From Pseudomonadota bacterium (GTDB lineage: Bacteria > Desulfobacterota > Anaeroferrophillalia > Anaeroferrophillales > Tharpellaceae): a stretch of 56,296 bases of DNA. The stretch covers positions 1 to 56,296 of the forward strand of contig DAOWHJ010000038.1 in the NCBI GenBank assembly GCA_030641485.1, in the 5' to 3' direction. Position 1 is the first letter of the stretch. Each line of letters begins with the position of its first letter. The position numbers and the translations under genes are program-made. The notes under the pieces were generated by a model, which saw only the letters and a list, made by a program, of their open reading frames with translations, ran no database searches and had not been told where the DNA came from. Of the stretch, positions 5,038 through 56,240 are shown piece after piece.

Positions 5038-5227
5038 AAAATTATCCTCGAAATATTACACATATGTTGCGACCGAAGAGAGTGCTCTTGCGGTACGGGT
5101 AATTTTCCTCACATACCTCGATCTGAGAAAAAATTGCTATTCTCAGACAGGCTCCTGACGGATTTTCCAATTTCATTGTAAATTCCTAAAAACACTGGAA
5201 TGGCTAAGTAAAAATTTTGATATGCAA

Positions 5228-5295: not shown

Positions 5296-5312
5296 GCCGG
5301 AGATCGAATTTT

Positions 5313-6911: not shown

Positions 6912-7660
6912 TCAACCGCCCGCATCTCTTTAAGTTTCAAGGCCATCTTCGCTTTCACCTGTTTACGCATGACAATATGGGCATCTTCGCCAGTGAATGC
7001 AGCCGGATCAACCGGAGGAAGCGCCTGCATCCGCACCCGAGCCGGACGGAGACAAAAAGTTCCCGGGGGTAAGAGTCGGTCGGTACCAGTAATACAGAGC
7101 GGTACCAGCGGCAGGTTAAGTTTTACTGCGAGCAGAAAAGCACCCGAATAAAAACGCTGCAACTCACCATCACGACTGCGATGCCCTTCCGGAAAAAAGA
7201 GAATTGAGCCCCCGGCATCAGTAATTAAACGGGCCTCTTCGGCACTCGCAGAAAAACCGGCATCCTCAACATCAAGATAGCGCGCCCAGCGCATGAAAGC
7301 CGTATACCAAAAGAGTCGACGAAAGGGCCAGGCTCTAACGACAAAAGCAATATCACTTACCGGCTGGAGCGCCATACAGAAGGTGTCGAAAAAAGAGAGG
7401 TGGTTGATAACATAGATACAGGGGGTGCGTTGCCGATACGCTTGGTCAAAACCTTCACGTTTGAAACTGACAAAGGGCAAGACAATCAGCATCCAGACCC
7501 GGCCATAGAGCCATATAAAATGGCGCATAATCTTCGCCACCGACCAACGACTGACCCCACGCCAAAGCAAGAAAGTAACCGGTGAAATCAGCAGGCCAAC
7601 CACCGTCCAGATGATAAGCAGTGGGTAAACCCAGAGATTCATCAGAGCCAACATCTTCAA
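6908..7660 (-). CDS. Lysophospholipid (1-acyl-sn-glycerol-3-phosphate) acyltransferase family protein, PlsC-like (250 aa)
   Basis: N-terminal membrane helices, HX4D-type motif INHLSFFDT and FPEGHRSRDG motif. It overlaps the ACP and nnr genes by 4 nt each. Confidence 0.8.
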   Translation of the reverse strand: MKMLALMNLWVYPLLIIWTVVGLLISPVTFLLWRGVSRWSVAKIMRHFIWLYGRVWMLIVLPFVSFKREGFDQAYRQRTPCIYVINHLSFFDTFCMALQPVSDIAFVVRAWPFRRLFWYTAFMRWARYLDVEDAGFSASAEEARLITDAGGSILFFPEGHRSRDGELQRFYSGAFLLAVKLNLPLVPLCITGTDRLLPPGTFCLRPARVRMQALPPVDPAAFTGEDAHIVMRKQVKAKMALKLKEMRAVD

Positions 7661-7923
7661 TCTGCTGCCGTTTCGGTTTCCCGTTTTTTTGTGATCACAA
7701 AACGATGGATATCACCTAAAGTTCGAATTTCACGCAAGCCTTCGTCATCACGAATCTTGATCTCAAGCAGACCTTCAAGGACAACCACCATATCGACAAT
7801 ATCGAGACTGTCAAGACCTAAGTCAGCAAAAATCTCAGCCTCCGAGACCATAGCCGACTCATCAAGTTCAAACTCCTCAATCAATGAATCATTGACCAAA
7901 GATATTATTTCTACATCTGTCAT
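7657..7923 (-). CDS. Acyl carrier protein (88 aa)
   Basis: Phosphopantetheine attachment motif DLGLDSLDIVDMV. Small and acidic. Confidence 0.85.
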   Translation of the reverse strand: MTDVEIISLVNDSLIEEFELDESAMVSEAEIFADLGLDSLDIVDMVVVLEGLLEIKIRDDEGLREIRTLGDIHRFVITKKRETETAAD

Positions 7924-8057
7924 GTTTTTCCTAATCTCCGGCAGAACCGGATAAGTAACTTACAACTCAGCTTTCTGAGTTAGTTCTTTTGCGTTATGTC
8001 TGAGCACTTTATAGTATCCCGCAAAGACGCAAAGGCGCCATGAAAATCAAAAAAATC

Positions 8058-8209
8058 GTAACTATTCAGGTTTCCACTATAAAACCACAACAAATGGCGG
8101 CGAACATTGCTTCGCTCCCATAAACGGGGTCACAGCTGGGGTGCTAACGCACCTTGTACCAGCAGTGACCCCAATCCCGGCAGTTTGCAGATGGCACCTG
8201 AATAGTTAC
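8058..8209. mobile_element. MITE-like palindromic element, family A copy 1 (152 bp)
   Basis: Perfect 14-bp terminal inverted repeats GTAACTATTCAGGT (8058-8071) / ACCTGAATAGTTAC (8196-8209). Internal nested stems are GGGGTCAC/GTGACCCC and GGTGC-TAAC-GCACC. It is homologous to 12194-12347 and 31909-32097. Confidence 0.75.
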
Positions 8210-9435
8210 AATTTATCTACAGACTTCAGCACCAGACAGGAATTGACTCCGCCTAGAGCAAAATTGTTTTTTAACACCAGATTCACAGAGCCCTTCCTGA
8301 CCCCTGAAAAAATATTTGGCCCAACACAGTCAGGATCTATCTCTTCAAGATTGCGGGTCGGCCAGAGTTCCCCTCGCTGCATCATTGCAACCGTGGCAAT
8401 GGTTTCCAGGCCGCCACTAGCGGCTAGAGTATGACCGAGGTGACCTTTAAGTGAGCTGATGGGTACCTCTTCACCAAAGAGCTCAAGTAGAGCCTGAGCT
8501 TCGGCAATATCACCTTTCTCGGTGGCCGTAGCGTGAGCATTGACGTAGTCGATTGCGCCAGGTTCAACTCCGGCACTCGCCAAAGCTTCAAGCATACAGA
8601 GTTGCATCGCGGCACTACTCGGTTCCGCGATACTTCCGGTCTCAGTCAAGGTGGCAAAGCCAATGATCTCAGCTAAAATATGCGCCCCCCGATTTTCTGC
8701 AGCAGTCAGCTCCTCAAGTACTAAGACTCCGGCGCCCTCACCGCAAACCACCCCATCTCGCCTTCGATCAAATGGGCGGGAGGCTTGAGTCGGCTCTTCA
8801 TTATAGCGAAAAGAGGCCGCATTCATCAAGTCAAAAGTTGCAGCAGAGAGCGGATGAAATTCCTCGGTCCCACCGCAAACCATAGCTTCCTGGATGCCAA
8901 ATTTAATCATCTCATAAGCATACCCCAGAGCTTGACATCCGGTGGCACATGCCGCAGCCGGGGCGAGCAGACGCCCATTAAGACCAAAAAACTGAGCCAC
9001 ATTTGTTGCAGCCGAGTGATTCATGGTCTTAAAAAACAGTGAGGTTTTCATCCGGGAAAAACTCTTATCCACCAAGTGATCGGCAAAAAAGTTTTCACAC
9101 GTTTCCAAGCTACTGATAGTGGTTCCGAGTGCAACCCCATAGCGGCCACTATCATATAGGGCTTCTGGCAAAGCCGCCTGATTCAAGGCTTCACGGGCCG
9201 CGAGTACGGCAAAGATAGATTGTCGCGACATGGAACGCCGCTTATTTCGGGCAATATCCTTATCATTAACCCCCGGCACCAAGGCCGCAAGGCGGGTTCT
9301 TAATCCGTCATAATCAGATAAGCGATCGAGAACTTTGATCGCACTACGGTCATTAAGGAAACCATCTATAAGTTCCTCAACCCCGCGACCGAAGGGCGAA
9401 ATCGCACCCATTCCCGTAATCACTACCCGTCGCAT
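8206..9435 (-). CDS. Beta-ketoacyl-ACP synthase, FabF/FabB-like (409 aa)
   Basis: Catalytic triad motifs are present: AAACATGCQALG (Cys), NAHATATEKGD (His), KGHLGHTLAASG (His). The stop codon lies inside the terminal repeat of the family A element. Confidence 0.9.
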   Translation of the reverse strand: MRRVVITGMGAISPFGRGVEELIDGFLNDRSAIKVLDRLSDYDGLRTRLAALVPGVNDKDIARNKRRSMSRQSIFAVLAAREALNQAALPEALYDSGRYGVALGTTISSLETCENFFADHLVDKSFSRMKTSLFFKTMNHSAATNVAQFFGLNGRLLAPAAACATGCQALGYAYEMIKFGIQEAMVCGGTEEFHPLSAATFDLMNAASFRYNEEPTQASRPFDRRRDGVVCGEGAGVLVLEELTAAENRGAHILAEIIGFATLTETGSIAEPSSAAMQLCMLEALASAGVEPGAIDYVNAHATATEKGDIAEAQALLELFGEEVPISSLKGHLGHTLAASGGLETIATVAMMQRGELWPTRNLEEIDPDCVGPNIFSGVRKGSVNLVLKNNFALGGVNSCLVLKSVDKL

Positions 9436-10940
9436 ACAACCTCACGCCTCAAGGCCTCGACCTTATCGTGACCAACAATCTCACCGACTGCCATAAGTGC
9501 CGAAGTAATTGCCCCCAAAAGCCCTGGGGCCGTAGTCGCTTGGCCGGCTAGGAAAAAATTCTCAAGTCTGGTTTTGGCGGCTGGATTAAATTGTCCGACC
9601 ATATGTTTTACCCCATAAAGTGACCCGGTGGGGGATAAGTTAATCCGTTGCAAAGTTTTTTTCGTCGCCACACACTCAACCTTGAGCCCTGCGCCTAACT
9701 CCGGCAACAAACCTGAAATTCGTTCGCGCACCTGCTCCCCAATTTGCACTTTTCCCTCTGCATATGCAAACCTTGACTGAGCCTCGCCAGCGGCAACCTC
9801 AGAAGCGGCGGGAAGAATGGCAGTTATACCACACTCATGAGCACCGGTAAAGCCACCGGAACTGGCGAAGTTAAGATAGAGTAGGCGTTCGCAAAGCGGC
9901 AAGTCAGGAGCAAACAGGTCGGTTCCCGGCGAGGGCAGAAAAAAGAAGTTTCGACCGGCAAAGTCGTAAGAATCGGAGGCTTCCCCACCTAAAGCACTTC
10001 CTCGCTGACGCTCACAGCGCAAAAAAACGATTTCAGCACTTGCAGTTTCAGCTAAGGCGTTAAGTCGACGCCGATAAACTGGCCGAAAAACCGAATCAGG
10101 AACCAGAGCCAACATCGCTTTAGGATGAATAGTTGAGACACAATTTACAGCCTGAAGACGCTCGCCATTAGCACAGGCAAGCCCGGCAAACGCCCCCGCC
10201 GCAGTCAACTCCACCTCGCTCACCTGGTGGCGACAGAAAAGATCAACCCCACTGCGTTCACATGCCGCAACCAAAGCCTTAACCAAAGCCCTTCCCCCAC
10301 CCTTAAAGGTTGAGGCCGAACGATAGTAACCATCAACCACACCAGCATGAATTGCAAAGGGGACTTCAGAGGGCTTAGTTCCATACAAAAGGCAATGTAC
10401 CTGCAACAAGGTTCGGAGCTCACCTGAAATTGCCAACTCAGCAAATACCTGCTCCAGACTTTGCTCATGTAGAGCCGCAAGACTCAAAGGAGAGAAGGCC
10501 GCTTGCGGATGATAATAGGGTAAATTTTGCGTGACTTCCTGAACCCGCCCCAAGTACTTCGTGATGGGGTTACGTTGCTCAGGGAAACGCTTTTGCAATG
10601 CCAGGCTCAGAGCGTCATAACCTTGCGGGAAAGAGAAATTCAAACCACTTTCAGGCTGAATGATGGTGTCATAGGCCAACTCATCAAAGGCGACCCGATG
10701 CAGGTCCTCAGCAACCCCTAAAAGACTGAGACTGCGATCAAGAACGCCGCCACTCTCCAGCCCGCCGGCATAGTGAAATCCCGCCTCAAAATAGACCCCG
10801 TTACGGACAAATCCATCAATCAACGGGGCCGGTCCTGAAGCCTGCTCAAGCAGGGCCACGCGAAAGCCAAAACGGGCCAGCAGCAAGGCACTGCTAATCC
10901 CGGAGACCCCGGCTCCGATAACTAGGTAATCATATTTCAT
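9423..10940 (-). CDS. NAD(P)/FAD-dependent oxidoreductase, phytoene desaturase family (505 aa)
   Basis: YDYLVIGAGVSGISSALLLARFGFRVALLEQ Rossmann motif. It overlaps the upstream KS by 4 nt and the downstream KS by 13 nt. Confidence 0.7.
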   Translation of the reverse strand: MKYDYLVIGAGVSGISSALLLARFGFRVALLEQASGPAPLIDGFVRNGVYFEAGFHYAGGLESGGVLDRSLSLLGVAEDLHRVAFDELAYDTIIQPESGLNFSFPQGYDALSLALQKRFPEQRNPITKYLGRVQEVTQNLPYYHPQAAFSPLSLAALHEQSLEQVFAELAISGELRTLLQVHCLLYGTKPSEVPFAIHAGVVDGYYRSASTFKGGGRALVKALVAACERSGVDLFCRHQVSEVELTAAGAFAGLACANGERLQAVNCVSTIHPKAMLALVPDSVFRPVYRRRLNALAETASAEIVFLRCERQRGSALGGEASDSYDFAGRNFFFLPSPGTDLFAPDLPLCERLLYLNFASSGGFTGAHECGITAILPAASEVAAGEAQSRFAYAEGKVQIGEQVRERISGLLPELGAGLKVECVATKKTLQRINLSPTGSLYGVKHMVGQFNPAAKTRLENFFLAGQATTAPGLLGAITSALMAVGEIVGHDKVEALRREVVCDG

Positions 10941-12172
10941 GGGGTGCCAAAATCGAGCAGCAGCGAAGCGTTGGAACCACCAAAACCCGCGGCATTACAG
11001 AGTACCTTATCAGGTTTTTGCAAGCAAGTTTCATTTAATATTCGCAAACCCGCAGTACTCTCATCATGTTCAAAAAAATTAATCGTCGGGGCCATAAAAC
11101 CAGCTTCTGCCATAATCACAGCGTAGACTGCGGTCGCCGCTCCAGCCATCCAAAGTTCATGACCGGTCATCGACTTAAGAGCACTGACCCAAGGCATCGA
11201 TGACGCTGAAAAAACTGACCTGATATTTTCGGCCTCAGCGGCATCACCCGCCGGGGTTGAAGTCGCGTGTGCCAGAAGCAAACAGATATCTTCAGGGTCA
11301 AGGTTTGCATCCATTAATGCCGCCCGCATAGACCGAGCCAGACCGTCAACACTCGGCACCGAAAGAGTACCGCCATCAGAAGAGAAACCGTATCCAGCAA
11401 CCTCACCTAAAATATTTGCCCCACGCTTCTGCGCCAGATCATAATTTTCCAAGACCAAGGCGGCAGCCCCGCCACTGGGGACCAAACCGTCTCGATCTTT
11501 ATCAAAGGGTCGTGATGCGGCCACCGGATCATCAATCCGTGACGAAAAGGCACCGAGGGCATCAAAGCTACACATCGACTCCCAATTAATCTCCTGAGCC
11601 CCACCACAGATAACCCGCTCCTGACGACCTAAAGCGATCAAGTCCGCAGCCTGGCCAATCGCATGCCCGCTACTTGAACAGGCCGAGCTTAACGTCCAAC
11701 TTGCCCCTTGGGTCCCAAGCAAAACATTCAGGTTCATGGTTATAGCCGAGGTCATCGCCCGAAAGACCAAGCCACTTCCAAGTTTATGGGTCTCTCCATG
11801 TTGACGTAAAAGCTCAACCTGCTCCACCGCCGCCAGACAACTCGAATCACAACCAAAGATCAAACCGCTTTGCGGGTTACGTAACTCTTCGTCATGAAGG
11901 CCAGCTTGGGCCAAAGCTTCACACACCGCAACATAAGCATGCTGGGCAAAATCCGGCATCGTTTTACGCTGCTTTCGACTTAAAAAACGCTCCGGACAAA
12001 CCTCTGGCAGGCGACCGGTTAGCGGGCTGCGAAAGCCCGCCGTTTGGCGCACTTCATCTGCGACAATCCCAGATTGCCCAGCCTTCAGAGCCCCTGCAAC
12101 CGTCTCAACCCCGACCCCGAGACAAGAAACAATCCCAACCCCAGTTATCGCAACTCGGTTTCGTTCTACCAT
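10937..12172 (-). CDS. Beta-ketoacyl-ACP synthase, FabB/FabF-like (411 aa)
   Basis: SSACSSSGHAIGQA (Cys), AHATSTPAGD (His), KSMTGHELWMAG (His). Confidence 0.9.
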   Translation of the reverse strand: MVERNRVAITGVGIVSCLGVGVETVAGALKAGQSGIVADEVRQTAGFRSPLTGRLPEVCPERFLSRKQRKTMPDFAQHAYVAVCEALAQAGLHDEELRNPQSGLIFGCDSSCLAAVEQVELLRQHGETHKLGSGLVFRAMTSAITMNLNVLLGTQGASWTLSSACSSSGHAIGQAADLIALGRQERVICGGAQEINWESMCSFDALGAFSSRIDDPVAASRPFDKDRDGLVPSGGAAALVLENYDLAQKRGANILGEVAGYGFSSDGGTLSVPSVDGLARSMRAALMDANLDPEDICLLLAHATSTPAGDAAEAENIRSVFSASSMPWVSALKSMTGHELWMAGAATAVYAVIMAEAGFMAPTINFFEHDESTAGLRILNETCLQKPDKVLCNAAGFGGSNASLLLDFGTP

Positions 12173-12193
12173 AAAGCCCTATACAAACAATCA

Positions 12194-12347
12194 GTATACA
12201 ATTCAGGTCCCCCCACTATAAAGCCACAACAAATGGCGGCGAACATTGCTTCGCTCCCATAAACGGGGTCAAAGCTGGGGTGCTGACGCACCTAGTACCA
12301 GCAATGACCCCAATCCCGGCAGTTCAGATCGCACCTGAATAGTTACA
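12194..12347. mobile_element. MITE-like palindromic element, family A copy 2 (154 bp)
   Basis: Collinear with copy 1 at high identity. The right terminal repeat ACCTGAATAGTTAC is intact and the left one is degenerate (GTATACAATTCAGGT). Flanking octamers AACAATCA / AATAATTA match 6 of 8. Confidence 0.7.
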
Positions 12348-12358
12348 ATAATTATTGG

Positions 12359-12979
12359 TTAACGATGGTTAACACCGGGCATGCCTTGCGTGTTTCCCAT
12401 TCCCAACATACCGGGGATATTCGGCATTGCAATTTTACTGAAATTGGCTGGGACCTTAAACAGGTGATCCGGTTGCGGGGCAGAGTTAATATTACGATAG
12501 TTGACTTCGGCTTCATCGGAGATGACACGAACCGGGAGGCTCTCTTTTTTCGCAATCCAGTAAGTTACCTTTTCGCCCTCATCAGCCAACTCATATTTAT
12601 TGCAATCAACCCCATTTACAGTTTCACTGCCGAGTTTTTTTGCCTCTTTTCCCAGCTCCTGATTCCAATCTCCAGGCATATCATCCCCCTCCTCAGGGTC
12701 GATAGCCATCTCTAAGTAACGCTTTTCCTGCGGCATCAAAGTCCAAGCAACTCCTTTATCCGGGCGGCTAATCAAAATAATTTTACGCCCACCCTGACTC
12801 ATCTCATGACGACTCATCTCGCCCTTGAAAAAAATCTTTCCTTGAGCGACAACCTGCCCCCCTGAAGTAGTCTCCATATCGGCACTATACTCTGCCGCCT
12901 GCAGGATGGGCAAAACCGCAAAACATAGCAAAAAAATGGCACTAAGCATTATCGTTGCAGTTCTTTTCATAAAGCTCAT
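12359..12979 (-). CDS. Periplasmic LolA-fold-like protein (DUF4412-type, 206 aa)
   Basis: Signal peptide (IMLSAIFLLCFAVLPILQA). The pattern GKIFFKGEMSRHEM...ILISRPDKGVAWTLMPQEKRYLE...GSETVNGVDCNKYE...LFKVPANF is typical of this family as I recall it. Not checked against an HMM. Confidence 0.5.
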   Translation of the reverse strand: MSFMKRTATIMLSAIFLLCFAVLPILQAAEYSADMETTSGGQVVAQGKIFFKGEMSRHEMSQGGRKIILISRPDKGVAWTLMPQEKRYLEMAIDPEEGDDMPGDWNQELGKEAKKLGSETVNGVDCNKYELADEGEKVTYWIAKKESLPVRVISDEAEVNYRNINSAPQPDHLFKVPANFSKIAMPNIPGMLGMGNTQGMPGVNHR

Positions 12980-13080
12980 ATCTCCCCCTCGTTAACTCAA
13001 AATTTGTAGATATTCAGTTTCATTTAATTAAATACTAAGTTCGTGGATTTTCTTTGTAACTTAATCGCCAATCACAATAT

Positions 13081-13809
13081 CTAAATAATTCCACCATTCA
13101 CAGATAAAACCTGGCCGGTTATATATGACGCTTTGTCAGAGCAGAGAAAGGAGACCGCATCGGCAACCTCTTGCGCCTGCCCGAATCTACCCAATGGGAT
13201 AGTCGGTAAAATCTTATCAACGGGCAAATCTTCTGTCATCTCGGTTTCAATAAAACCGGGGGCAACCGCATTGACCAGAATTTTACGTTTTGCAATTTCA
13301 GCGGCAAGTGAGCGCGTAGCTCCTATCAAACCTGATTTTGCGGCACTATAGTTAACCTGACCGGCAACCCCGATCTGGCCAGAGGTTGAGACAACATTGA
13401 CAATCCGTCCAGATCTTTTACGAAGCATCCGGGCGACAACCAGTTTGGTGATCAGAAAAAAACCATCCAGATGAACTCTTAACACCGACTGCCAATCATA
13501 ACGACTCATCAGGGCCATCACCCCGTCCCGGGCAAAACCGGCATTATTAACCAGAATATAAGGGGTCTCTTCTGCCAGCAGCGGACTTAGCGCCCCATCC
13601 ACCGCCTCTTCATCCGCGACATCAAAGGGCAACAACCGACACTCTCGACCAAGGGCAGTAATTTTATCGGCAACCGACTTGGCCGCATCGTGATTGGAAC
13701 GGTAGTTAAGCCAGATATCGTAGCCATCGGCGGCCAGGGTTTCCGCAATCGCCGCGCCAATCCCGCGCCCGGCTCCGGTGACCAAGGCAATCTTATTGTT
13801 TTTCGACAT
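13081..13809 (-). CDS. fabG: 3-oxoacyl-ACP reductase FabG-like SDR (242 aa)
   Basis: KIALVTGAGRGIGAAIA (TGxxxGIG), NNAG, YSAAKSG (YxxxK). The start is trimmed from the ORF-track 13917 to ATG 13807-13809, which has a GGGAG RBS and avoids overlap with the upstream gene. Confidence 0.85.
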   Translation of the reverse strand: MSKNNKIALVTGAGRGIGAAIAETLAADGYDIWLNYRSNHDAAKSVADKITALGRECRLLPFDVADEEAVDGALSPLLAEETPYILVNNAGFARDGVMALMSRYDWQSVLRVHLDGFFLITKLVVARMLRKRSGRIVNVVSTSGQIGVAGQVNYSAAKSGLIGATRSLAAEIAKRKILVNAVAPGFIETEMTEDLPVDKILPTIPLGRFGQAQEVADAVSFLCSDKASYITGQVLSVNGGII

Positions 13810-13822
13810 ACTCCCAACCATT

Positions 13823-14407
13823 CTAATATCTAACGTTGACCACTTTACCCTTACTGTTGAACTCAACCACAACGGTGCGAAAACGATTACGCCAATATTT
13901 CCATTGGTTATCGTCAAGAGATGGGGTTTCGTGTGCCGCAGGGTAGCCCAAAGCTGTCATTACCCCTTTTTTGGTCATCCCCTTGTAAGCCTTACCCTTT
14001 TTGATTCCTTTCAGGTCAACTGCAGAAAAACCTTTCAAAGAGACCGGTTTAGGGGAGAGAATCAGCTCCTCATACTCATCAACACTGACCCCTAAACGAC
14101 TTTCATGGACCTCAAAAACCCCATGTCGACCATCTTCAAGGTCATAATAAAAACCATAGTTTTTCATGAAACGTTTCCAGGTTCGAACTGTCAATTTAGT
14201 GTTGGGCGGAATAATGACGTGACCGGCCCCGGGATCGGTATAGTTGGCATAGCTCGACTTCAACAAGCCTTTCTTATCCTTCTGCGCATGGATATTATAC
14301 TTGTTATAAAAGGTTTCGCTGGCGGCAAAGACATTGGCAAAAAAACCACCCAGCAAAAAACTCACCAACAAAAACAGAACTGAAATCTGCGTAACTTTTT
14401 TAATCAT
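13823..14407 (-). CDS. Secreted protein of unknown function with C-terminal BamE/SmpA_OmlA-like segment (194 aa)
   Basis: The start is trimmed to ATG 14405-14407 behind AAGGAG. Signal peptide MIKKVTQISVLFLLVSFLLGGFFANVFA. The C-terminal GMTKKGVMTALGYPA...WKYW...VVEFNSKGKVVNV resembles the BamE fold signature. Confidence 0.5.
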   Translation of the reverse strand: MIKKVTQISVLFLLVSFLLGGFFANVFAASETFYNKYNIHAQKDKKGLLKSSYANYTDPGAGHVIIPPNTKLTVRTWKRFMKNYGFYYDLEDGRHGVFEVHESRLGVSVDEYEELILSPKPVSLKGFSAVDLKGIKKGKAYKGMTKKGVMTALGYPAAHETPSLDDNQWKYWRNRFRTVVVEFNSKGKVVNVRY

Positions 14408-45770: not shown

Positions 45771-48700
45771 CTATTGCCTGCGCCGTAATACTGTCAACGC
45801 TGCCAATAGCAACAAGCTGCTCGAGATAATCATCCCCCACTCATTGAGAGTTGGAATGGCCTCACTGCTGACCAATGGAATATTATTGTTTAGAATCAGA
45901 GGTGTGGTATCCTGAATATTGATGATCAGATACCACTCATTATCGGCACAGGAATAAGCCGCCAGATGTCCAGTGGTACCATCTTCACCACTCCCAAGGA
46001 CCAGAGGATTGGGGATGCTATTCGCCGTCAGGCTTCCAGAAACAGCGCAGCCTGAGTTATCTACAACATATCCGACTGGAGGCGTAACGGTTATCGTGTA
46101 GGTTCCGGTTTGATCGACAGTAAACTGATAGTATCCATCGGCACCATTTCTACCGGAAACAAAGATTGCATTGCCGGAACCGCTGACGGAAACACTTCCT
46201 CCAACTATAATCTCCCCGGTAGATGAGTCGTAAAAATAGCCGGTAGGATCGTAATCATTAGAGTCGTTAAAACCATCACCATCGCGATCGCCGGTGCCTT
46301 CCAACACATCACTTACTCCATCACCATCGCTATCGAGATCATTATCATTATTAGTTAAATATTTGTCGCCAGGGTTATTGCCATTATAATCGGTATCATC
46401 TGAAACCGCCGGTCCGATCACAACCGTATAAGCGACATCACCATCATACAGGTCATCATTTACGCCAGTTACGGTTACGGTCTGAACTGTACCCCAGTTA
46501 GTTGGCGTAAAACTAAGGCTTGTCGATGAAACAGCTCCTTCAGATGTATCGCTACTGCTCACAGGAATAACCACGTTGTTTGTTGGTTCAGAATCCAACA
46601 CCACAGTAAAGGTTGCAGTCGCGCCACCTTCATTGGTAGTTGTGGAGCTTAAAGCACCGATACTTATGCCGACATCTACACCAATTCCGGTAATAGTTAA
46701 ATCATATGGATTCTCATCGCTATCACTGTTATCTATGGATATTGCAGCAGTTTTGATGCCGGCAGAAGTCGGGGTAAAACGTACCGTGAATGCAGTAGTC
46801 CCGCTAGCCCCAACCGTAGAAGTCGGCTGGGCCTGGATGCTGAACTGATCAGCGTTTACACCAACAAAGGTTAAAGGAGTAGTGATTGTCAGAGGTGCGG
46901 TGCCAGCGTTTTCAACGGTAAAAGTTACGTCTGTATCAGAGCTCGTTGCCTGATTACCAAAGTCAAGAGTGTCACCGTCAGCGAAGTTGTTGCCGTCGTA
47001 TCTGAGATCCATCTCAGGAGCCAACGTGGTAAACATCTGATTTTCACCGTAAGAGGTTCCGGTACTATTGGTAGCGTAAGCCCTGACGTAGTAGGTAGTA
47101 CCGGGCAATAAAGTGGTAATATCTGAAGTAAATGCACCGGCTAATGAAGTTACACCTTCATCGCTATGGCTGTCAGTTACTACAGGGTTGCTTGATGTAC
47201 TCCAACATACTCCATGAGCATTTGGATGAGGCTCACTCAGACTTGTGATGTTACCATTTCCGGTTGCTGTGGTGCTAGCAATATCGGTTACAACTTGAGT
47301 AGTTACGATTGAGGCTGTAGAGTCTGTAATAAATGTCTGGTCGGCGCCATTAGTGGTACCTGCACCGTTTACGCCAATCACCCGGTAATGGTAAGTGGTA
47401 TTGGGGGTAAGGCCGGTGATTAGCCTACTTACTGAACCAGAGCACATACCTATTACCGGACTCGTTTCAGCCTCGATACTGCTACTATAGCTAATATCAA
47501 GACCATACTCAAAAGTCACAATTGTACTACTGTTGCAGGCATTGACGCTACCGTTTAAAGTAGCGCTGCCACTGCTTAGATTGCTGACGGTATCGGTCGT
47601 CACCGTTGGCACATTCGACACATTAACGCTAGATTCACTGGCGGAGTTATCCGCAGCGTCACACTCACAAACCTCGTTATCTGGATCAATTTCAGCCGTA
47701 AAGATGCAATCGTCACTACAGTCACTGATGTAGTTGAAGATTAGATTCCGGGACTCCCCCGGAATCAGGTCAATAGTTTGATCGGTGAAAGTGATGCCGC
47801 AGTTACTGGTGACACGTACCAACACATCTTCGATCTCCGTGGCCCCTGTACCAATAACATTGACAGTGACCTCTCCTGACACCTTCTCATTGTCAAGACA
47901 GGTAATTGCAAGGGTGAGATCGTTTACCGTAAGATTGATGTTCGTGTGGTTGCTGGCAGGACGGTATAGTGCAACTCCAGAACTGTTGCTCAGACCGGTT
48001 ATTACGTCATCAAAGCCGGAGCCATCAAAACCCACGGATCGGATACTTGAGCTATTTGTACTAAAGTAGATGAGGTTTTCTGCCTCATCCAGATCCAGAA
48101 ACCTTACATCAGCACCTAATCCGACCCTAACATCTTCCAGGTTTGATCCGTCCAAATCAGACTTTTGGATTTTTCCGGAGCCGGGATCGGAAAAGTACAT
48201 TTTCAGACCCATAAGATCCAGAGAGAGACCGAGAGGGGTACTTAATCCAGCCCCAATCAAGATCTCCTGGTTGGTTCCGTCAAGATCAGCGCGCCAGAGC
48301 TCTCCATCAGCAGGTTCAGTCCAGTAGAGTTTATTAGCACCAACATCCAGGGCTAGTCCTCCGACATCTGACATCCCTGAAAGTAGCGTTTCCTGATTGG
48401 CACCGTTTAGATCTGTCGAGTAAATGGCGTTATCACCATTATCCGTCCAGTATATTTTCCCGCCGGTCGAATCCAGAGCGATATCCAGGGGTGACGTGAG
48501 AGCTGAAACCAGAGTATGAACATTTAACCCATCCAGATCGGATTGCTGAATGGTTCCCGCAGCACCGTTCACCCAGTATAGTTTAGCATGGGTTTCATCC
48601 ACGGCGACACCTTGAGGTTCGTCCACCCCTAAGGCCGCATCAGCCACATCTTCCAGAGAAGATCCGTCCCGATTTGCCCGCTGAGTTACTTGGCCGGTGC

Positions 48701-51700
48701 TATCAGACCAGTAAAGCTTGACCTGGTATGGTGGGGTTGTTTCCAGGCGCGTGTTGTTAGAGCCATCACTTTCACAGACATCATTAGCGACATCTGCGGT
48801 TGCCGTAAATTGACAATCGGCAAGACTGCAGTTGGCCCCGGCACCAGTGAGATTAAAGTTTAAAGTAGCGCTCGCTCCAGCCGCCAGAGAGGCCACACTT
48901 GCATTAGCGAAAGTAAGGCCGTTATTTGCGGTTAAACTCACCTGAAAAGTGGATGCGGTTGCGCCACCCAGGTTTTGCACATCAACGTCTACAGATCCGG
49001 AAATAGCATCATCGCTGCAACCAAGATCATCAAAATCGATGCTCGTGATTTGCAGATCTGGAATTTGGGCCGTGTACGCTGTCCCGGTAAAAGTGTTGTC
49101 AGATTCATTGCACTCACACTCCGTCCCACCGCTATCCACTTCGGCGGTAATGGTGTATGAGGTATCGTAATCAGGACTCCAGGTGCTGGTGTCGATAGTC
49201 ACATCGGCAAAAGCATTGGCAGCAATGCTAGCCCCCGTGTAAGTGCCAGAGCCGGACCAGCCATTGCCATCACCAGTGACATTAACCGTGAAATTTTCAG
49301 AGCAGACACCATCTCCCTGATTCTGGACCCGCACAATAATAGTTCCAGAGCAATCCCCATCTCCGTTACAGGTAATTTCCGGCGTAATTTCAGTGGTCAC
49401 CAGGTTGGGCAGCAGCAGGGTGGCAGCGACAGCTTCAACCCAAGTCCCAACAGTGCAGCCATAGGCTTGGGTGGTTGGATCTCCGTCCGAGGCCTCTCCT
49501 CCAACTCCGCAGGCCCATATAGCACGGACATGGTTCTGTCGCAGGTTGCCAGCACAATCATCCTGGCTGGGGAGATTATCAGGATTTAGCGTACCAACCA
49601 GAGTAAACACCGCCGTGCCACCTCCGGCTGCCAAATTATTGATCTCCCATCCGTACACACCGCCACCCATATCTACAGGATCACTCGACTCCCCGGTTCT
49701 GACATCAATCCAGGTGCCCGGCATATCCTCTACCCGCACTACCTGAGCATTGCCAGAACCATTGTTGGTGACCGTGATCGACCAGGATTGTTGGGCTCCG
49801 CAATCAACCTGACTTAAAGTTGGAGTTTGAGTAACGCTTAAACTTGGAGCTAAAGCAGTAAGCGATTGGGTTTTGGTAACACTATACTGAGCATTGTCAC
49901 AGCAATCATAATAGTAGAGGTCAAGTTTCAGGTCTGCAGTGGTGTAGCAGGCACTCTGTACATTAAATCGTAACACCAGGGTATCGTTACCCCCATCTGC
50001 TTGAATCGTATCAGCGATATTGTTGCCCTTGTCCCAAATGTCACGCCAGGTGAGTACCGAACCGACAATAGCAGGATTTGCTATGCCTGCAAGTAAGCCG
50101 GTAGCACTGATCTGGTCGGTACTCAAACCACTATGGGAGGAGTTGTCATAGGTCAAGCCAGAGGGTAAAGTGATGACACAGTCCACATCGCTGGCATCGA
50201 CGAGTCCGGAATTTTCTATGATTACAGTTAATTCTGCAGAGCTGTCACAAGCATTGATAGCGGTGGGATTCATCACAACCGAGACGACGTTCATATCCGG
50301 TTCACGGGTTTCGGTGCGTTCGTCGGTAAATCCAGGAACGCTAAGACAGAGCGTATTATCCGGGGCATCCTGTCCGGGCTTGGTTGTTGAACTTCCATCT
50401 GAAGAACCGCAACCCCAATAGGCGGTTACGCTATTGCTCAGATCTGAACTGCATGAGGCATTGGCTATGGCATTTAAGGTCAGGATCGCAGTGGCGCCAT
50501 GGGGAAGATTGTTTAATTCCCAAGCTACCATTTGTCCGACATTGGTGCCGTTATCAGAAGTATAGGTCGGGTCACCAGCAGAAGAATCGAAAGTAAAGGC
50601 GGCACCGAGACTCTCCTCTACCCATATTAGGGGTAGCGTGTAGCCGCTTTGGTTAGTTACATTGATAGACCACTGGAGACTCTCACCACAATTAACAGGT
50701 GTATCAGCTCGGGTTAGTTGAACCTCAATAACCGGGGTATTAAAACTTGCGGTAAAGGTTCTGGGAGTAGTGTGAAAAAAATCCGCACAGGGATTCTCAT
50801 ATTGAGTTGATACCGTAATATCACCACCATTAAAGGGGCAGTCAAAGGCTAAACCGAACTCAATTTCAATCGTGTCACCGGGATCGACGCTTGCGAGAGC
50901 GGGAATTTGTGTACTACTCCAGACCAACGGGGAATTTGTCGAACTGGGATCGTAGATCGCATTAGGACCGTTCCAGGATCCACTATTTATACGCCAGCGA
51001 GTGCTGCCGGAAACGTAGCTTAAGTTGAAGGGCAGGGTTTCAGTTACCCTTAAATTATAGACTGTAACCTGAGCGCTATTTCTGAGGCTGATCAGCCCCA
51101 CTAATGGGCTGGAACAGGCTTCCACGCCAGCGGCAGGATTGATGGTAGTCGTGTTAATCAAGTTGGGGACGGGATTCGTGACGACGGAGCTATCTGTCAC
51201 ATCGCTCTGGCAATCCCCAGAAAGACAGCCCCAATTGGCAGTTACATTATTTGTCAGGTTATTGCAATCTGTCTGCTTTGCAATAAAAGTAATCTGGCGG
51301 CGCTCTCCGGCGGCCATAGAGGTGATCTCCACGGATGCACCTTTAATAGCCCCTCCATCATGACCCAATGAATCATTAATGGTTACTCCGGACATATTAT
51401 CCACGACCACCGGATTGACACCGTGCTCGTACATGAGACCGCTACCGAGCTCATCATCCATCCAGACGTTGTAAGCGGTGCCGGTACCGCGGTTGGTGAG
51501 GTAGATTTCCCACTGCACACGGTTGCTGTCAGCATAATAAATCTCCGGGGTTTTCTCGATCAATAAATCTCCACTCAACAACAGGACTGGAGTTTCAGAG
51601 GCAACTGTGGAACAGATTTCGTCAGAGGTCGTGTCGTCGCTACAGAGATCATCATAGTAAACGGTGGCTTTGAGTTCGCCGTTACCACCACAACGTTTTT

Positions 51701-54182
51701 GGAGATCAAATTGCAGGGTAGCCAACTCCCCTGAACCGTTAAAAACATCGTTAAACATCCAAAAATAATTACCATTGGCGTCGATCGTCGGAGTACAGGA
51801 AACCGGCGCGACATCACCACCGCATACGACCCCGGAAGGGTTAACCATTAAGTAGTTTAGACCAGACAGAACGAGTTTGACGTCTTTGGGATTCGTATTA
51901 GCTGAGATTTGGGTCAGGGTTATGGTAATGGTTTTACTTTCACAAGTATGAAAAGTATCACCAAGGCCATCGATAATCAGGGCCATGCCTGGAGATATGA
52001 TGCTTACTTCAGTAGTCTCATGGATAATGCCGTCGCCCAAACAGGCGGAGCCTGATACTCCCAGGTCAAGACTGGACCAGGAATAAAAGGTGGTTTCAGC
52101 ACAAGCAATAACAGCACTTGTGGCGGTCAGGTCATAGTCTATTGTTAATGTTTGTCCGGCCAGCGGGGTTGCCGGGCATCCGGAAAAATCAAGAGTGAGG
52201 CTCCCACCGGGAGTAGTATCGGTAACGGCGACACTACTGGCAATATCTCCTGTGCCACTTAAATTTATGCTGAGGTTGGCATTATAGACTTGTTGTGACT
52301 CAGCGTGCTCTGTAAAATTCAGATCTGAAAGCTCGACCCCGGAGTCACCGAAAAAAGTGTAGGTATTGGTATATCTGGTATCTCTACAGCGTTGTGTCGG
52401 GCTGGTCGAGGTTTTTTCAGAACTCACCCCTTCAGCACATTCGATGGCAGTAAGTTGTGAGTCAGAATCACTTAAATCACAACCGCAGCAATCTATAACA
52501 TTGGCAGTAATGCTGTTGCTTAAATAGGTATTGCAATAAGTTTCACACTGACTTGCATCCGGGACTTGAACGCTAATGCTGGTGCTCAATGAAGCCGGCG
52601 GAGTGTAGGTCCAGGTAATAGTGCCGCCGCTACCACCTCCCCCAACTACCCAGACTCCACCACCTGAATCCACAACGGTTACGCCATCAGGCAGGCTGTC
52701 AACGACCGTAACCATCCCGATTGTACTGGAACTGCAATTGTCAAGGCCACTGTAACTCGAGGAGATCACATAGGTTATGCTATCGCCGATTTGCACAACG
52801 GCTGGGGCTCCACCTATACTCACGGAAAGGCTGGAAGTTGAGACCGGAGGGTTGATTGAGCTAAGTTCCACCGAAGGATAAAATTCTTGGTCACATTCAT
52901 CCTTGTAGAGCTTCTGCCAGAGCAGGTCACCCGAGGGGAAATTTCCGTTGCACCAGTCAGTATAGGTCAAATCGAAACTGAGATTATAGAAGTCTCCGAA
53001 ATCACCGTTTGCAGCCAGGGCTGCAGTCAGTTCAAAGCGTTTGTTCACATTATTGTAAATGGCCCCGGTCGAAACATTGGAGACAATAAAACCGGTAAAA
53101 TCAACCACTGTATAGACATCATAGGCGATGCCGTCACCGATGTTGCTGATTGCAAATGAGAAATTCTCAGTATCATCGCAGTAGGTAAAGTTAATATCGG
53201 GAGGGGTGAAAGATATGACCGGGGTGAGCACTACATGCTGGACTGAGGCTTTAGCTGTGCCCCCATCTATCGAGGTATCGAAACAGGCAGCAGCGGGGCT
53301 AGGCTCGCAACCGAAACGCACATCGGCAACGCTGTTCAGATTTTCACAGGCAATAAGGGTGGCGGTAATATTCATGCTCAGGGTCTCACCGGGGGCCATT
53401 GACGCCAAAGCCGCGTACTCGGTGCTGCCCCAAGTCGTGGTTTGCCCACTGTTGTTGCCGTTCTCAGTCGCAGAAACATAAGCTAGACCAACATCTAACA
53501 AACTGGTAACTTCTACGTTTTCAATAACCCCGACTCCAGTATTTTCAACACTCAGCGTCCAGGTAACATTTTGACCTACCACCTGAGGAATCACATTTGG
53601 GGTCATTTTTATAGTAACAGCCCCGGGGTTTACTTGAATATCTAAAACGCCAGAGCTATCACACTCGGGCGGGGAGCTGGGAATGGTGTAATCAATTGTG
53701 CTATTCAAGGACCCAGACACGGCGGTGCAGTTGGTCTCTAGCTGGAAGGTGACATTCAGGGTGGCACCGTTATTAAGAACCAAGGGGCTGCCCTGCAGTG
53801 CATCAATCTCCCAAGTCAAATTAGGTGCATTAGGGTTAGGGGCACAATAGTCGTAATACCCCCCAGAGATTTCGGGGTTAGCTGTATTAATTGCACCACC
53901 ACCATTAATATCGATACTGGAGCTGCCGCCTACATAGAAAAAGCCTGTAAGGTTCTCCAACTTGGCAACCACCACCATATCGCTCATTTCACTACCGGAA
54001 TTATTAGTGAAACTGACAGTGTAACTTTTGCTCTCACACCGGTTGATCGTACTATCTCCAGAGATCGCGGCCTGAGCCCAAGCCGTAAACGGCATTTGGC
54101 ACACAAGAAATAGCAATAAGACGAGCCCTTTGAAAATCCAAGAAGTTCTGATATCCATCATTTTGCCAATAATTCCTTCCAC
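45771..54182 (-). CDS. Giant cell-surface repeat protein (2803 aa): Sec signal, DUF11/CARDB repeats, YWTD beta-propeller, FN3-like, choice-of-anchor-D-like, Calx-beta-like, TSP3 calcium-binding repeats, Cna-B/SdrD-like, IPTL-CTERM
   Basis: A single uninterrupted ORF. Signal peptide ...WIFKGLVLLLFLVCQMPFTAWA-QAA. There are many T/S/N/G-rich Ig-like repeats with DUF11-type LTNRGTGTAYNV / VTNNGSGNAQVV motifs. The C-terminus is IPTLNEWGMIISSSLLLLAALTVLRRRQ. The annotated start is GTG 54182; ATG 54161 is more likely. Confidence 0.9.
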   Translation of the reverse strand: MEGIIGKMMDIRTSWIFKGLVLLLFLVCQMPFTAWAQAAISGDSTINRCESKSYTVSFTNNSGSEMSDMVVVAKLENLTGFFYVGGSSSIDINGGGAINTANPEISGGYYDYCAPNPNAPNLTWEIDALQGSPLVLNNGATLNVTFQLETNCTAVSGSLNSTIDYTIPSSPPECDSSGVLDIQVNPGAVTIKMTPNVIPQVVGQNVTWTLSVENTGVGVIENVEVTSLLDVGLAYVSATENGNNSGQTTTWGSTEYAALASMAPGETLSMNITATLIACENLNSVADVRFGCEPSPAAACFDTSIDGGTAKASVQHVVLTPVISFTPPDINFTYCDDTENFSFAISNIGDGIAYDVYTVVDFTGFIVSNVSTGAIYNNVNKRFELTAALAANGDFGDFYNLSFDLTYTDWCNGNFPSGDLLWQKLYKDECDQEFYPSVELSSINPPVSTSSLSVSIGGAPAVVQIGDSITYVISSSYSGLDNCSSSTIGMVTVVDSLPDGVTVVDSGGGVWVVGGGGSGGTITWTYTPPASLSTSISVQVPDASQCETYCNTYLSNSITANVIDCCGCDLSDSDSQLTAIECAEGVSSEKTSTSPTQRCRDTRYTNTYTFFGDSGVELSDLNFTEHAESQQVYNANLSINLSGTGDIASSVAVTDTTPGGSLTLDFSGCPATPLAGQTLTIDYDLTATSAVIACAETTFYSWSSLDLGVSGSACLGDGIIHETTEVSIISPGMALIIDGLGDTFHTCESKTITITLTQISANTNPKDVKLVLSGLNYLMVNPSGVVCGGDVAPVSCTPTIDANGNYFWMFNDVFNGSGELATLQFDLQKRCGGNGELKATVYYDDLCSDDTTSDEICSTVASETPVLLLSGDLLIEKTPEIYYADSNRVQWEIYLTNRGTGTAYNVWMDDELGSGLMYEHGVNPVVVDNMSGVTINDSLGHDGGAIKGASVEITSMAAGERRQITFIAKQTDCNNLTNNVTANWGCLSGDCQSDVTDSSVVTNPVPNLINTTTINPAAGVEACSSPLVGLISLRNSAQVTVYNLRVTETLPFNLSYVSGSTRWRINSGSWNGPNAIYDPSSTNSPLVWSSTQIPALASVDPGDTIEIEFGLAFDCPFNGGDITVSTQYENPCADFFHTTPRTFTASFNTPVIEVQLTRADTPVNCGESLQWSINVTNQSGYTLPLIWVEESLGAAFTFDSSAGDPTYTSDNGTNVGQMVAWELNNLPHGATAILTLNAIANASCSSDLSNSVTAYWGCGSSDGSSTTKPGQDAPDNTLCLSVPGFTDERTETREPDMNVVSVVMNPTAINACDSSAELTVIIENSGLVDASDVDCVITLPSGLTYDNSSHSGLSTDQISATGLLAGIANPAIVGSVLTWRDIWDKGNNIADTIQADGGNDTLVLRFNVQSACYTTADLKLDLYYYDCCDNAQYSVTKTQSLTALAPSLSVTQTPTLSQVDCGAQQSWSITVTNNGSGNAQVVRVEDMPGTWIDVRTGESSDPVDMGGGVYGWEINNLAAGGGTAVFTLVGTLNPDNLPSQDDCAGNLRQNHVRAIWACGVGGEASDGDPTTQAYGCTVGTWVEAVAATLLLPNLVTTEITPEITCNGDGDCSGTIIVRVQNQGDGVCSENFTVNVTGDGNGWSGSGTYTGASIAANAFADVTIDTSTWSPDYDTSYTITAEVDSGGTECECNESDNTFTGTAYTAQIPDLQITSIDFDDLGCSDDAISGSVDVDVQNLGGATASTFQVSLTANNGLTFANASVASLAAGASATLNFNLTGAGANCSLADCQFTATADVANDVCESDGSNNTRLETTPPYQVKLYWSDSTGQVTQRANRDGSSLEDVADAALGVDEPQGVAVDETHAKLYWVNGAAGTIQQSDLDGLNVHTLVSALTSPLDIALDSTGGKIYWTDNGDNAIYSTDLNGANQETLLSGMSDVGGLALDVGANKLYWTEPADGELWRADLDGTNQEILIGAGLSTPLGLSLDLMGLKMYFSDPGSGKIQKSDLDGSNLEDVRVGLGADVRFLDLDEAENLIYFSTNSSSIRSVGFDGSGFDDVITGLSNSSGVALYRPASNHTNINLTVNDLTLAITCLDNEKVSGEVTVNVIGTGATEIEDVLVRVTSNCGITFTDQTIDLIPGESRNLIFNYISDCSDDCIFTAEIDPDNEVCECDAADNSASESSVNVSNVPTVTTDTVSNLSSGSATLNGSVNACNSSTIVTFEYGLDISYSSSIEAETSPVIGMCSGSVSRLITGLTPNTTYHYRVIGVNGAGTTNGADQTFITDSTASIVTTQVVTDIASTTATGNGNITSLSEPHPNAHGVCWSTSSNPVVTDSHSDEGVTSLAGAFTSDITTLLPGTTYYVRAYATNSTGTSYGENQMFTTLAPEMDLRYDGNNFADGDTLDFGNQATSSDTDVTFTVENAGTAPLTITTPLTFVGVNADQFSIQAQPTSTVGASGTTAFTVRFTPTSAGIKTAAISIDNSDSDENPYDLTITGIGVDVGISIGALSSTTTNEGGATATFTVVLDSEPTNNVVIPVSSSDTSEGAVSSTSLSFTPTNWGTVQTVTVTGVNDDLYDGDVAYTVVIGPAVSDDTDYNGNNPGDKYLTNNDNDLDSDGDGVSDVLEGTGDRDGDGFNDSNDYDPTGYFYDSSTGEIIVGGSVSVSGSGNAIFVSGRNGADGYYQFTVDQTGTYTITVTPPVGYVVDNSGCAVSGSLTANSIPNPLVLGSGEDGTTGHLAAYSCADNEWYLIINIQDTTPLILNNNIPLVSSEAIPTLNEWGMIISSSLLLLAALTVLRRRQ
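45774..45857 (-). other. IPTL-CTERM-type C-terminal sorting signal of the giant protein
   Basis: IPTLNEWG motif, a hydrophobic helix (MIISSSLLLLAALTVL) and a basic tail RRRQ form the tripartite layout of the IPTL-CTERM family. Confidence 0.75.
46245..46337 (-). other. Thrombospondin type 3-like calcium-binding repeats within the giant protein
   Basis: LDSDGDGVSDVLEGTGDRDGDGFNDSNDYDP (DxDxDGxxD repeats). Confidence 0.7.
47963..48719 (-). other. Six-bladed YWTD (LDL-receptor class B) beta-propeller module within the giant protein
   Basis: Six blades about 42 aa apart: KLYWSD, KLYWVN, KIYWTD, KLYWTE, KMYFSD, LIYFST. Each is followed by a ...DGSN/DGTN...L motif. Confidence 0.75.
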
Positions 54183-54392: not shown

Positions 54393-54665
54393 TTAAACAA
54401 AACTTCCGGTAAAGAGACATTCTACCGTAATTATTGATACGGCCCAATTGACAATGAAAACATCATCCAGCCAACCAACAAAAGGAATGAAGTCGGGAAT
54501 GATATCTACCGGGAATACGACATACGCTAATGCTCCGGCAATCGTGGTCCAGGTACTGGCACTCATTGAAAAATCTATATCTGTAACCATATTGAAAAGG
54601 GCAGTAAATCCTTCGTACCAATCTTTGTCTTTATGACGACGGGAAAAGCTTGCAGCTCTCTCCAC
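54393..54665 (-). pseudogene. DUF1232 (YkvA-family) membrane protein gene with apparent 5' frameshift
   Basis: The VFPVDIIPDFIPFVGWLDD signature is present. The reading frame stays open 22 codons upstream of the GTG at 54665 without a start codon. An ATG with a strong GGAGG RBS at 54733-54735 is out of frame by 1 nt. Confidence 0.55.
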
Positions 54666-55113: not shown

Positions 55114-55740
55114 TCAATAACTCATCCTCGCCGGAATAACTCCCCTTACTCCACCTCTAGGAGTTGGAGTATCACCTAACCTTCTCGGTATCAAATGAAT
55201 ATGTACATGAAAAACAGTCTGACCGGCAACATCACCACAATTTACTCCAACATTGAAACCTTTCACCGTATCGTCATCTTTTAATATTCTATTTTTGGTA
55301 ATTTTCAGTAATCGGTCAGAATCTTTCTTCTCCTTATCGGTCAACAAGAAAAAATCAGGTACATGACGTTTGGGTATAATCAATGAATGACCTGGTGAAA
55401 CTGGAAAACCATCATTTATCAATATCATTGAATCATATTCATCTTGAATCTTGTCCTGTAAATTGTGATAACAGAAAATACAGTCGTCTACTTTATCAAT
55501 GGGATCGTAACGGAAATCCGTATCATCTTTATTACCCTTCGAGCGATTACATTTAGCACACAGGACTTGAAGGTTTTCTATATTATTGGTACCGCCTTTT
55601 GATCTCGTCCTGATATGATCAACATCCAAAATGGTTTCTTTTTTGGTCGCACCACACAAAGCGCAACGACCGCCAGATTCACTCAACACCAGATATCGCA
55701 AACTGTCCGGCACAGGACCTTGATCAGTCAGACGAAACAC
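55114..55740 (-). CDS. HNH endonuclease domain fused to HIT (histidine triad) domain (208 aa)
   Basis: N-terminal HNH: CALCG...DVDHIRTRSKGGTNNIENLQVLCAKCNRSKG. C-terminal HIT: PVSPGHSLIIPKRH...GQTVFHVHIHLIPRR. GTG 55740 (AGAGGG RBS, 6-nt spacer) is preferred over the ORF-track TTG 55746. Confidence 0.8.
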   Translation of the reverse strand: MFRLTDQGPVPDSLRYLVLSESGGRCALCGATKKETILDVDHIRTRSKGGTNNIENLQVLCAKCNRSKGNKDDTDFRYDPIDKVDDCIFCYHNLQDKIQDEYDSMILINDGFPVSPGHSLIIPKRHVPDFFLLTDKEKKDSDRLLKITKNRILKDDDTVKGFNVGVNCGDVAGQTVFHVHIHLIPRRLGDTPTPRGGVRGVIPARMSY

Positions 55741-55821
55741 ATTCAACCCTCTTTTGATAAAAAAATCTTGAATTTTCTGCTCACACCCTGAATCATTGCA
55801 GATTTAATTGCTACAGTTTTG

Positions 55822-56117: not shown

Positions 56118-56122
56118 ATTAT

Positions 56123-56167
56123 TGGTCGGGACGAGAGGATTTGAACCTCCGACCACCTGAACCCCAT
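56123..56167 (-). pseudogene. 3' fragment of a tRNA-Pro(GGG)-like gene (T arm, acceptor 3' strand, CCA). The 5' half is absent.
   Basis: The minus strand reads ATGGGGT-TCAGG-TGGTC-GGAGGTTCAAATCCTCT-CGTCCCG-A-CCA. There is no matching CGGGACG 5' acceptor strand or D arm in the next 130 nt, and the anticodon stem partner is mismatched. Confidence 0.65.
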
Positions 56168-56240
56168 GCGGGTCACCCGTCACTTAAAACCCTTTATTTT
56201 AAGCTATATATAGGCTTTACATTCTCTGCACAACCCCACA

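Follow-up and report, generated by a model that had tools for sequence, protein, structure and literature searches.

The DNA examined here, called the window below, is the whole 56,296-nucleotide stretch of contig DAOWHJ010000038.1 (assembly GCA_030641485.1), part of a 2.0-Mb metagenome-assembled genome (MAG) in 179 contigs with an estimated completeness of 62%. On its minus strand the window encodes a giant protein of 2803 residues that ends in an IPTL-CTERM sorting signal and belongs to the uncultured deep-sea sediment bacterium Candidatus Tharpella, a genus whose name was given to bacteria of hydrothermal sediments at Auka and Guaymas (PMC9213671). We class the giant protein as a further, probable IPTL-CTERM cargo of the known exosortase H (XrtH) system, and the reading argued for below, to which we assign a probability of about 0.7, is that it is an adhesin-like cargo processed and displayed via an XrtH-type exosortase. 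The protein was scanned with hidden Markov models (HMMs) from Pfam and NCBIfam, both whole and in segments, and residues 2500-2775 were also searched against PDB sequences. The gene and the features of its product are as follows.

45771..54182, minus strand: whole gene of the giant IPTL-CTERM surface protein, one open frame of 2803 codons plus stop
54069..54161, minus strand: probable ATG start and probable Sec signal peptide, MMDIRTSWIFKGLVLLLFLVCQMPFTAWA/QA, read by eye
49584..53615, minus strand: DUF11-type immunoglobulin (Ig)-like repeat region, residues ~190-1533 (PF01345, 110 bits for the whole protein, cut-off 24.6)
48750..49346, minus strand: two CARDB modules, residues 1613-1699 and 1730-1811 (PF07705, E 1.2e-9 and 6.9e-12 in segments)
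48141..48719, minus strand: YWTD / LDL-receptor class B beta-propeller, residues ~1822-2014 (PF00058, 65-73 bits, cut-off 21)
47637..47918, minus strand: third CARDB module, residues 2089-2182 (PF07705, E 6.7e-6)
46998..47600, minus strand: two FN3-like modules, residues ~2195-2395 (PF00041, two stretches, 30.6 bits in a segment, cut-off 25)
46686..46985, minus strand: choice-of-anchor D / HYDIN-VesB-type Ig module, residues 2400-2499 (NF012200, 63.3 bits, cut-off 45)
45858..46685, minus strand: beta-rich, Asp-rich C-terminal region, residues 2500-2775, without family assignment
45777..45857, minus strand: IPTL-CTERM sorting signal, residues 2776-2802 of 2803 (TIGR04174, 29.8 bits by hmmscan, cut-off 20.5)

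A first-pass annotation of this DNA, made from the letters alone, had described an 8.4-kb open reading frame (ORF) for 2803 residues without giving its strand; the length and the single open frame stand, and the strand is minus. The frame opens at a GTG and runs from 54182 down to 45771. A pair of ATG codons at codons 8-9, with GGAAGGA in front, appears to be a likelier start of the protein than the GTG. Read by eye, the N-terminus combines a basic n-region with a hydrophobic core and a cleavage-type site at AWA-Q, and MMDIRTSWIFKGLVLLLFLVCQMPFTAWA/QA would act as a Sec signal peptide. The protein is very acidic, with 332 Asp and Glu residues against 79 Lys and Arg, and contains 67 Cys residues. 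The earlier description of a mosaic surface protein, probably exported by Sec, holds.

The proposed order of modules, from DUF11/CARDB-type repeats through a YWTD propeller, another CARDB module, and two FN3 modules to a choice-of-anchor D module, was recovered by HMM matches above the cut-offs. Within the repeat region, segment searches placed DUF11 copies at residues 190-288, 459-530 (weak), 872-982, 1153-1254, and 1448-1533, and TIGR01451 scored 48.5 bits on the protein; between the detectable copies lie stretches, such as 560-860, that received no HMM assignment. CARDB reached 72.7 bits on the protein (cut-off 22.7). The PF00058 (Ldl_recept_b) repeats of the propeller occupy four stretches, with a fifth in the next segment, and the same stretch was weakly matched by SGL, DUF5050, and YncE-like models. 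Pur_ac_phosph_N and PhoD_N FN3-like matches also fall within residues ~2195-2395, and PF22544 scored 33-35 bits on residues 2400-2499. The three module types that had been placed closest to the tail were not found: neither Calx-beta (PF03160) nor TSP3 repeats (PF02412) gave an HMM match at E<=0.5, and in place of a Cna-B/SdrD module (PF05738), which had no match, there are weak CarboxypepD_reg/NOMO1-like matches near residues 2647-2714 (E 0.002-0.006). Apart from these, a Pfam search of residues 2500-2775 at E<=0.5 returned nothing, and the NCBIfam and PDB sequence searches of the region returned nothing meaningful. A DxDxDG-type run in this region, NNDNDLDSDGDGVSDVLEGTGDRDGDGFND, was seen by eye only, and a single-sequence AlphaFold2 model of residues 2496-2775 was unusable (predicted local distance difference test, pLDDT, 35.8). 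In its long array of diverged Ig-like repeats, its acidity, and its mosaic, species-variable module content, the protein resembles the giant DUF11/CARDB adhesin-like proteins of environmental bacteria; it differs from them in having no type I secretion/RTX features and no LPXTG motif and in its predicted anchoring via an exosortase-type signal.

Comparison with a relative indicates that the giant ORF is real and not an assembly artefact. The independently assembled congener G008 carries a collinear open frame of 2594 residues, free of stops, that is 71% identical to the giant protein over residues 13-2292 and 62% identical over residues 2503-2802. Residues 2293-2502 are absent from this orthologue; G005 and G013 have a counterpart of them, at 57% identity, within other proteins. 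Modules that come and go in this way, in a MAG broken into so many contigs, are also what might be expected if the ORF were a chimera or a collapse of repeat-rich genes. At the DNA level, however, neither tandem nor long direct repeats were found in the gene, whose sole direct repeat is a 28-nt pair at 79% identity, and blastp found no internal repeats in the protein, so there is little substrate for assembly collapse. Together with 2803 codons uninterrupted by a stop and the collinear frame in G008, this leaves an artefact as the least probable of the alternatives weighed in this report. Because the 2293-2502 module is missing in G008 and present in other G005 and G013 proteins, its gain or loss is better read as evolutionary, and the mosaic build of the protein as real. 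The giant gene is flanked on both sides by unrelated housekeeping genes, and its G008 orthologue by other genes, for an ABC ATPase and a P-type ATPase; gene context therefore gives no clue to function.

The C-terminal tail was assigned by the first-pass annotation to the IPTL-CTERM class, and this assignment holds: TIGR04174 scores above its curated cut-off (36.8 bits on the tail in the whole-genome search), and the tail is tripartite and lies at the extreme C-terminus, where IPTLNEWG is followed by the hydrophobic helix MIISSSLLLLAALTVL and then by RRRQ. PF18203 gave 19.0 bits with the whole protein and 21.6 bits with the segment (cut-off 20.8), and the NF033207 model, 'midcut-by-XrtH protein', aligned to residues 2769-2803. 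Across related genomes, the motif IPTL[NS]EWG[ML]I, with a helix and then a basic cluster behind it, is present in ~25 of ~30 tails, on passenger domains that are unrelated to one another. The only IPTL-CTERM protein found with an experimental localisation is the S-layer protein mela_00855 of Methylomirabilis lanthanidiphila, a diderm in which it makes up the outermost layer of the surface (PMC8671808); at ~312 residues, it has no passenger domains in common with the Tharpella protein. The same logic of signal peptide, passenger, motif, helix, and Arg cluster is found in the PEP-CTERM/exosortase A (EpsH) system (Haft et al. 2006, PMC1569441), which, like the Tharpella pair, is a many-to-one arrangement with a polytopic Cys/Arg membrane enzyme. 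The Tharpella system differs from it in the motif, which is IPTLxEWG rather than PEP, in a small XrtH-type enzyme in place of the EpsH type with eight transmembrane segments, and in a cargo gene that does not adjoin an exopolysaccharide locus.

An enzyme family for such tails was already catalogued. NCBIfam holds models for exosortase H (XrtH, TIGR04177), an XrtH-associated membrane protein (XrtH_assoc, NF041730), and the midcut-by-XrtH protein (NF033207). The product name that NCBI attaches to TIGR04177 is 'exosortase H, IPTLxxWG-CTERM-specific'; the database output itself reads only 'exosortase H'. The claim that no processing enzyme had been identified for IPTL-CTERM is therefore incorrect, and with it falls the proposal that the giant gene could serve as a handle for finding the cognate sorting system. 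The same claim is contradicted by a cargo-XrtH-partner module of canonical form from another genome in the phylum, described below, and IPTL-CTERM is not among the orphan sorting signals in Haft's 2023 list. In the literature searched, IPTL-CTERM is named only for the Methylomirabilis S-layer protein, and XrtH and IPTLxxWG appear nowhere; the IPTL-CTERM/XrtH pairing thus rests on curated comparative genomics and is bioinformatic in nature.

As the first-pass annotation had observed, no sorting genes lie beside the giant gene: there is no exosortase in the window, and the neighbours are unrelated housekeeping genes. A search of the whole genome with TIGR04178 found exosortase-family genes on only two other contigs.

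Contig C26:23508-24950 (locus L002:556-2001), minus strand: XrtH-like exosortase of 481 residues (best specific model XrtH, 64.5 bits)
Contig C124:3-1352 (locus L004), truncated at the contig end: XrtD fused to EpsI (TIGR04152, 550 bits)

The cognate enzyme of the tail is most likely the 481-residue XrtH-like protein of contig C26, which is unlinked to its cargo. Its size sets it apart from single-domain XrtH proteins of ~160-180 residues, being three times the 158 positions of the XrtH model, and it falls below the cut-offs of every specific NCBIfam Xrt model. Sequence alignments and a structural model indicate that it consists of two tandem exosortase-like modules and a four-helix C-terminal extension. 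Module 1 (residues ~14-171) aligns end to end with the XrtH of genome G221 (hhalign probability 95.6%), and its Cys86, Arg127, and His146, which correspond to the Cys, Arg, and His conserved in the exosortase/archaeosortase superfamily, do not vary among 12 homologues; by the ArtA and exosortase literature, these are presumably the catalytic residues. Module 2 (residues ~180-340) can be aligned with module 1 (hhalign 93.8%, E 1.7e-7), which pairs Cys251 with Cys86 and Arg293 with Arg127 and puts Tyr311/Asn312 at the position of the His; by itself, module 2 gives a full-length match to the archaeosortase ArtE model (E 1e-4). In an AlphaFold2 model built from 11 sequences (pLDDT 68), a unit of two helices, a three-strand meander, a Cys, and three helices occurs twice and is followed by four more helices. 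A Foldseek search of this model against the PDB gave no match at E<0.1, so no solved exosortase-like relative was found. An NCBIfam search of residues 330-481, which include the last ~140 residues, was empty. A fused XrtH_assoc within the C-terminal 310 residues was considered and rejected, as an hhalign comparison with the G221 partner produced no match.

A search of 1.84 billion representative proteins yielded 29 homologues of the C26 protein at E<=1e-30, of which ~20 are full length (465-506 residues); beyond that threshold come distant members of ~470 residues and, after these, a large number of single-domain proteins ~180 residues long. Close homologues occur in Candidatus Tharpella aukensis, Ca. 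Tharpella sp., and Thermodesulfobacteriota MAGs. Identity to the C26 protein is 56-70% across Tharpellaceae and 34% in G034 and in a Desulfatiglandales chromosome.

The distribution of the tandem gene follows that of the tails. Among 41 relatives, it is present in 12/14 genomes with an IPTL tail above the cut-off, compared with 2/27 genomes without a tail; the tail-bearing genomes that do not have it are G012, which is 68% complete, and G024, which has a single tail match of 20.6 bits. In 301 genomes of the phylum, an XrtH-like profile was matched by 9/10 IPTL-positive genomes and by 7/291 IPTL-negative ones. XrtD, by comparison, was found in 9/14 tail genomes and 12/27 tail-less genomes of the 41 relatives and does not track the IPTL tails. 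Processing of the tail by XrtD-EpsI would have in its favour that this enzyme is present and intact apart from its truncation at the contig end, and that substrates of its own are barely detectable in the MAG, the best VPLPA-CTERM candidate (C108:213-281) scoring 16.9 bits, below the cut-off. Against such a role, G009, G019, and G034 have IPTL tails and an XrtH-like gene and no XrtD, and the PEP_CTERM and VPLPA-CTERM models give no score on the giant protein's tail. Taken with the absence of tracking, these observations make XrtD a very unlikely processing enzyme.

A WecA/MraY-family glycosyl-phosphate transferase gene adjoins XrtD-EpsI on contig C124. Second XrtD-like paralogues with one in-frame TGA were observed in G004, G010, G015, G024, and G033. 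A selenocysteine exosortase was considered for the copy in G024 (G024:C145) and rejected, since the TGA is an ordinary stop that lies between an exosortase gene and a separate EpsI gene, and the enzyme has an ordinary catalytic Cys; a pattern search on the G015 and G004 copies found nothing.

In three other lineages an IPTL or IPTL-like tail and an XrtH-type enzyme are encoded side by side. G221, a genome of the same phylum, has a module consisting of a 164-residue cargo whose tail, APTMNEWGMII..., scores 25.3 bits with TIGR04174, a 179-residue XrtH (88.7 bits, cut-off 86), and XrtH_assoc (76 bits, cut-off 35), in that order. In G034, a cassette at L057 (G034:C344) 5459-13994 holds the tandem xrtH-like gene, which is followed by two IPTL-CTERM genes; the two products have long Pro-Thr linkers and identical tails, PSIPTLNEWGMII... 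/ PSIPTLNEWGMIIFVLL...RRRQ, and carry Big_9 and InlB B-repeat domains in one case and an ice-binding-like domain (PF11999, 250 bits) in the other. A Wzy_C O-antigen-ligase-like gene lies near this cassette on the opposite strand. In G265, at L084 (G265:C9) 771-7843, two cargo genes with VP....WGLL tails, encoding a 1237-residue 5'-nucleotidase/DNRLRE protein and a 754-residue subtilase with a DUF11 repeat, are followed by a gene for a 361-residue XrtH-like protein with a C-terminal extension (78.5 bits, below the cut-off). In G265, then, a variant of the motif seems to go with a variant of the sorter.

Other genomes have their cargo genes dispersed. A closed 8.16-Mb Desulfatiglandales chromosome encodes eight scattered IPTL tails, and its only exosortases are an EpsH-type enzyme, whose EpsI is encoded separately, and the tandem XrtH-like protein. 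On 12 public contigs, no IPTL gene was found within 10 kb of the sorter in either Tharpella or the Desulfatiglandales chromosome. In several Tharpella species, the sorter gene has a housekeeping context, together with degP-like and prmA genes. This context and the unlinked cargo fit one constitutive sorter that serves dispersed cargo. They could also be taken to suggest that the XrtH-like enzyme serves other substrates and that the tails are processed by another class of enzyme, such as a rhombosortase, a CPBP-type myxosortase, or a sortase. The tail, however, has no Cys and no Gly-Gly signature and matches only the IPTL_CTERM and midcut_by_XrtH models; no search was aimed at rhombosortase or sortase genes of this genome, and the co-occurrence and the adjacency in other lineages favour XrtH-type enzymes. 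We consider another enzyme class slightly less probable still than XrtD.

These comparisons are most consistent with XrtH-type processing of the giant protein. The proposed route is one in which the N-terminal signal peptide would direct the protein to Sec for export, after which the C-terminal helix of the sorting signal would retain it for a time in the inner membrane. The XrtH-type enzyme would cleave at or near IPTLNEWG, by analogy with other exosortases and archaeosortases, and the processed protein would be handed to an envelope acceptor and so come to be exposed at the cell surface or within the matrix. What the analysis shows is the signal, the enzyme family, the co-occurrence of the two, and their adjacency in other lineages. 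We infer by the same kind of analogy not only the cleavage, the acceptor, and the final location, but also a binding partner and an adhesive role for the protein. In its tripartite tail and its predicted Sec-exported cargo, the Tharpella system is like other XrtH/IPTL-CTERM systems; its genome has an XrtH-like exosortase, below the cut-off of the XrtH model, and the two layouts of such systems, dispersed cargo with one sorter and cargo-sorter cassettes, are both found among its relatives. It differs from them in the size and score of its sorter, in the second exosortase-like module and the four-helix extension, and in that a separate XrtH_assoc gene was not found.

Several observations weigh against XrtH-type processing. 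The C26 protein scores 64.5 bits against a TIGR04177 cut-off of 86, and its Ca. T. aukensis orthologue (MCD6533352.1) is named by NCBI only as an 'archaeosortase/exosortase family protein'. The XrtH-associated partner (NF041730) had no match at E<=1 in the source MAG, a weak negative at 62% completeness. The congeners G001 and G016 carry the tandem enzyme without a detected tail, and the co-occurrence counts overstate independence because the compared genomes are related. We know of no exosortase H that has been studied biochemically, and tail cleavage and attachment are for this reason drawn by analogy only. Finally, the first-pass annotation had looked to other IPTL-tailed proteins in the genome as a test of its assignment; in the 62%-complete MAG there are none besides the giant protein, while congener genomes carry one to five IPTL tails each. 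A single such tail would also suit a simpler explanation, in which the tail is a permanent C-terminal transmembrane anchor that is never cleaved and on which no exosortase acts. Processing is without experimental demonstration for any IPTL-CTERM protein, and the paper on the Methylomirabilis S-layer protein merely notes the domain (PMC8671808). A plain anchor, however, would not need the IPTL[NS]EWG[ML] motif, which is nearly invariant across ~30 otherwise unrelated proteins. The tails also co-occur with XrtH-type genes and adjoin them in three lineages. We regard a permanent anchor as improbable, if less so than XrtD or another enzyme class, and each of these alternatives is less likely than XrtH-type processing.

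Giant surface proteins built of Ig repeats and ending in an IPTL-CTERM signal are common, and the sorter family is catalogued, which limits the weight of the giant gene itself. The only mildly novel element, the doubled XrtH-like sorter that curated models leave unnamed, lies outside the coordinates of the giant gene. We suggest tentatively, at somewhat short of even odds, that this tandem protein is an uncatalogued exosortase subtype for IPTL[NS]EWG tails, in which the second module and the extension replace the XrtH-associated partner, and that the giant protein is its natural substrate. If both modules were functional, the protein would offer a one-gene system for studying how small exosortases recognise and transfer cargo. 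Its compactness, together with a sharply conserved motif of eight residues, makes it a reasonable reconstitution system for exosortase H biochemistry. The analysis also provides a first inventory of surface proteins and sorting for Candidatus Tharpella, a barely described sediment lineage whose XrtH-type sorter appears to be a fused, doubled enzyme that annotation pipelines have left unnamed.

Upstream of the giant gene, the window contains an AT-rich patch with a GC content of 0.39, compared with ~0.48. Positions 56120-56176 within it are apparently the 3' part of a tRNA, and ARAGORN reported no complete tRNA in the window. The patch also encodes a DUF1232 protein (54393-54665, minus strand) and an HNH-HIT fusion protein (55114-55746, minus strand).

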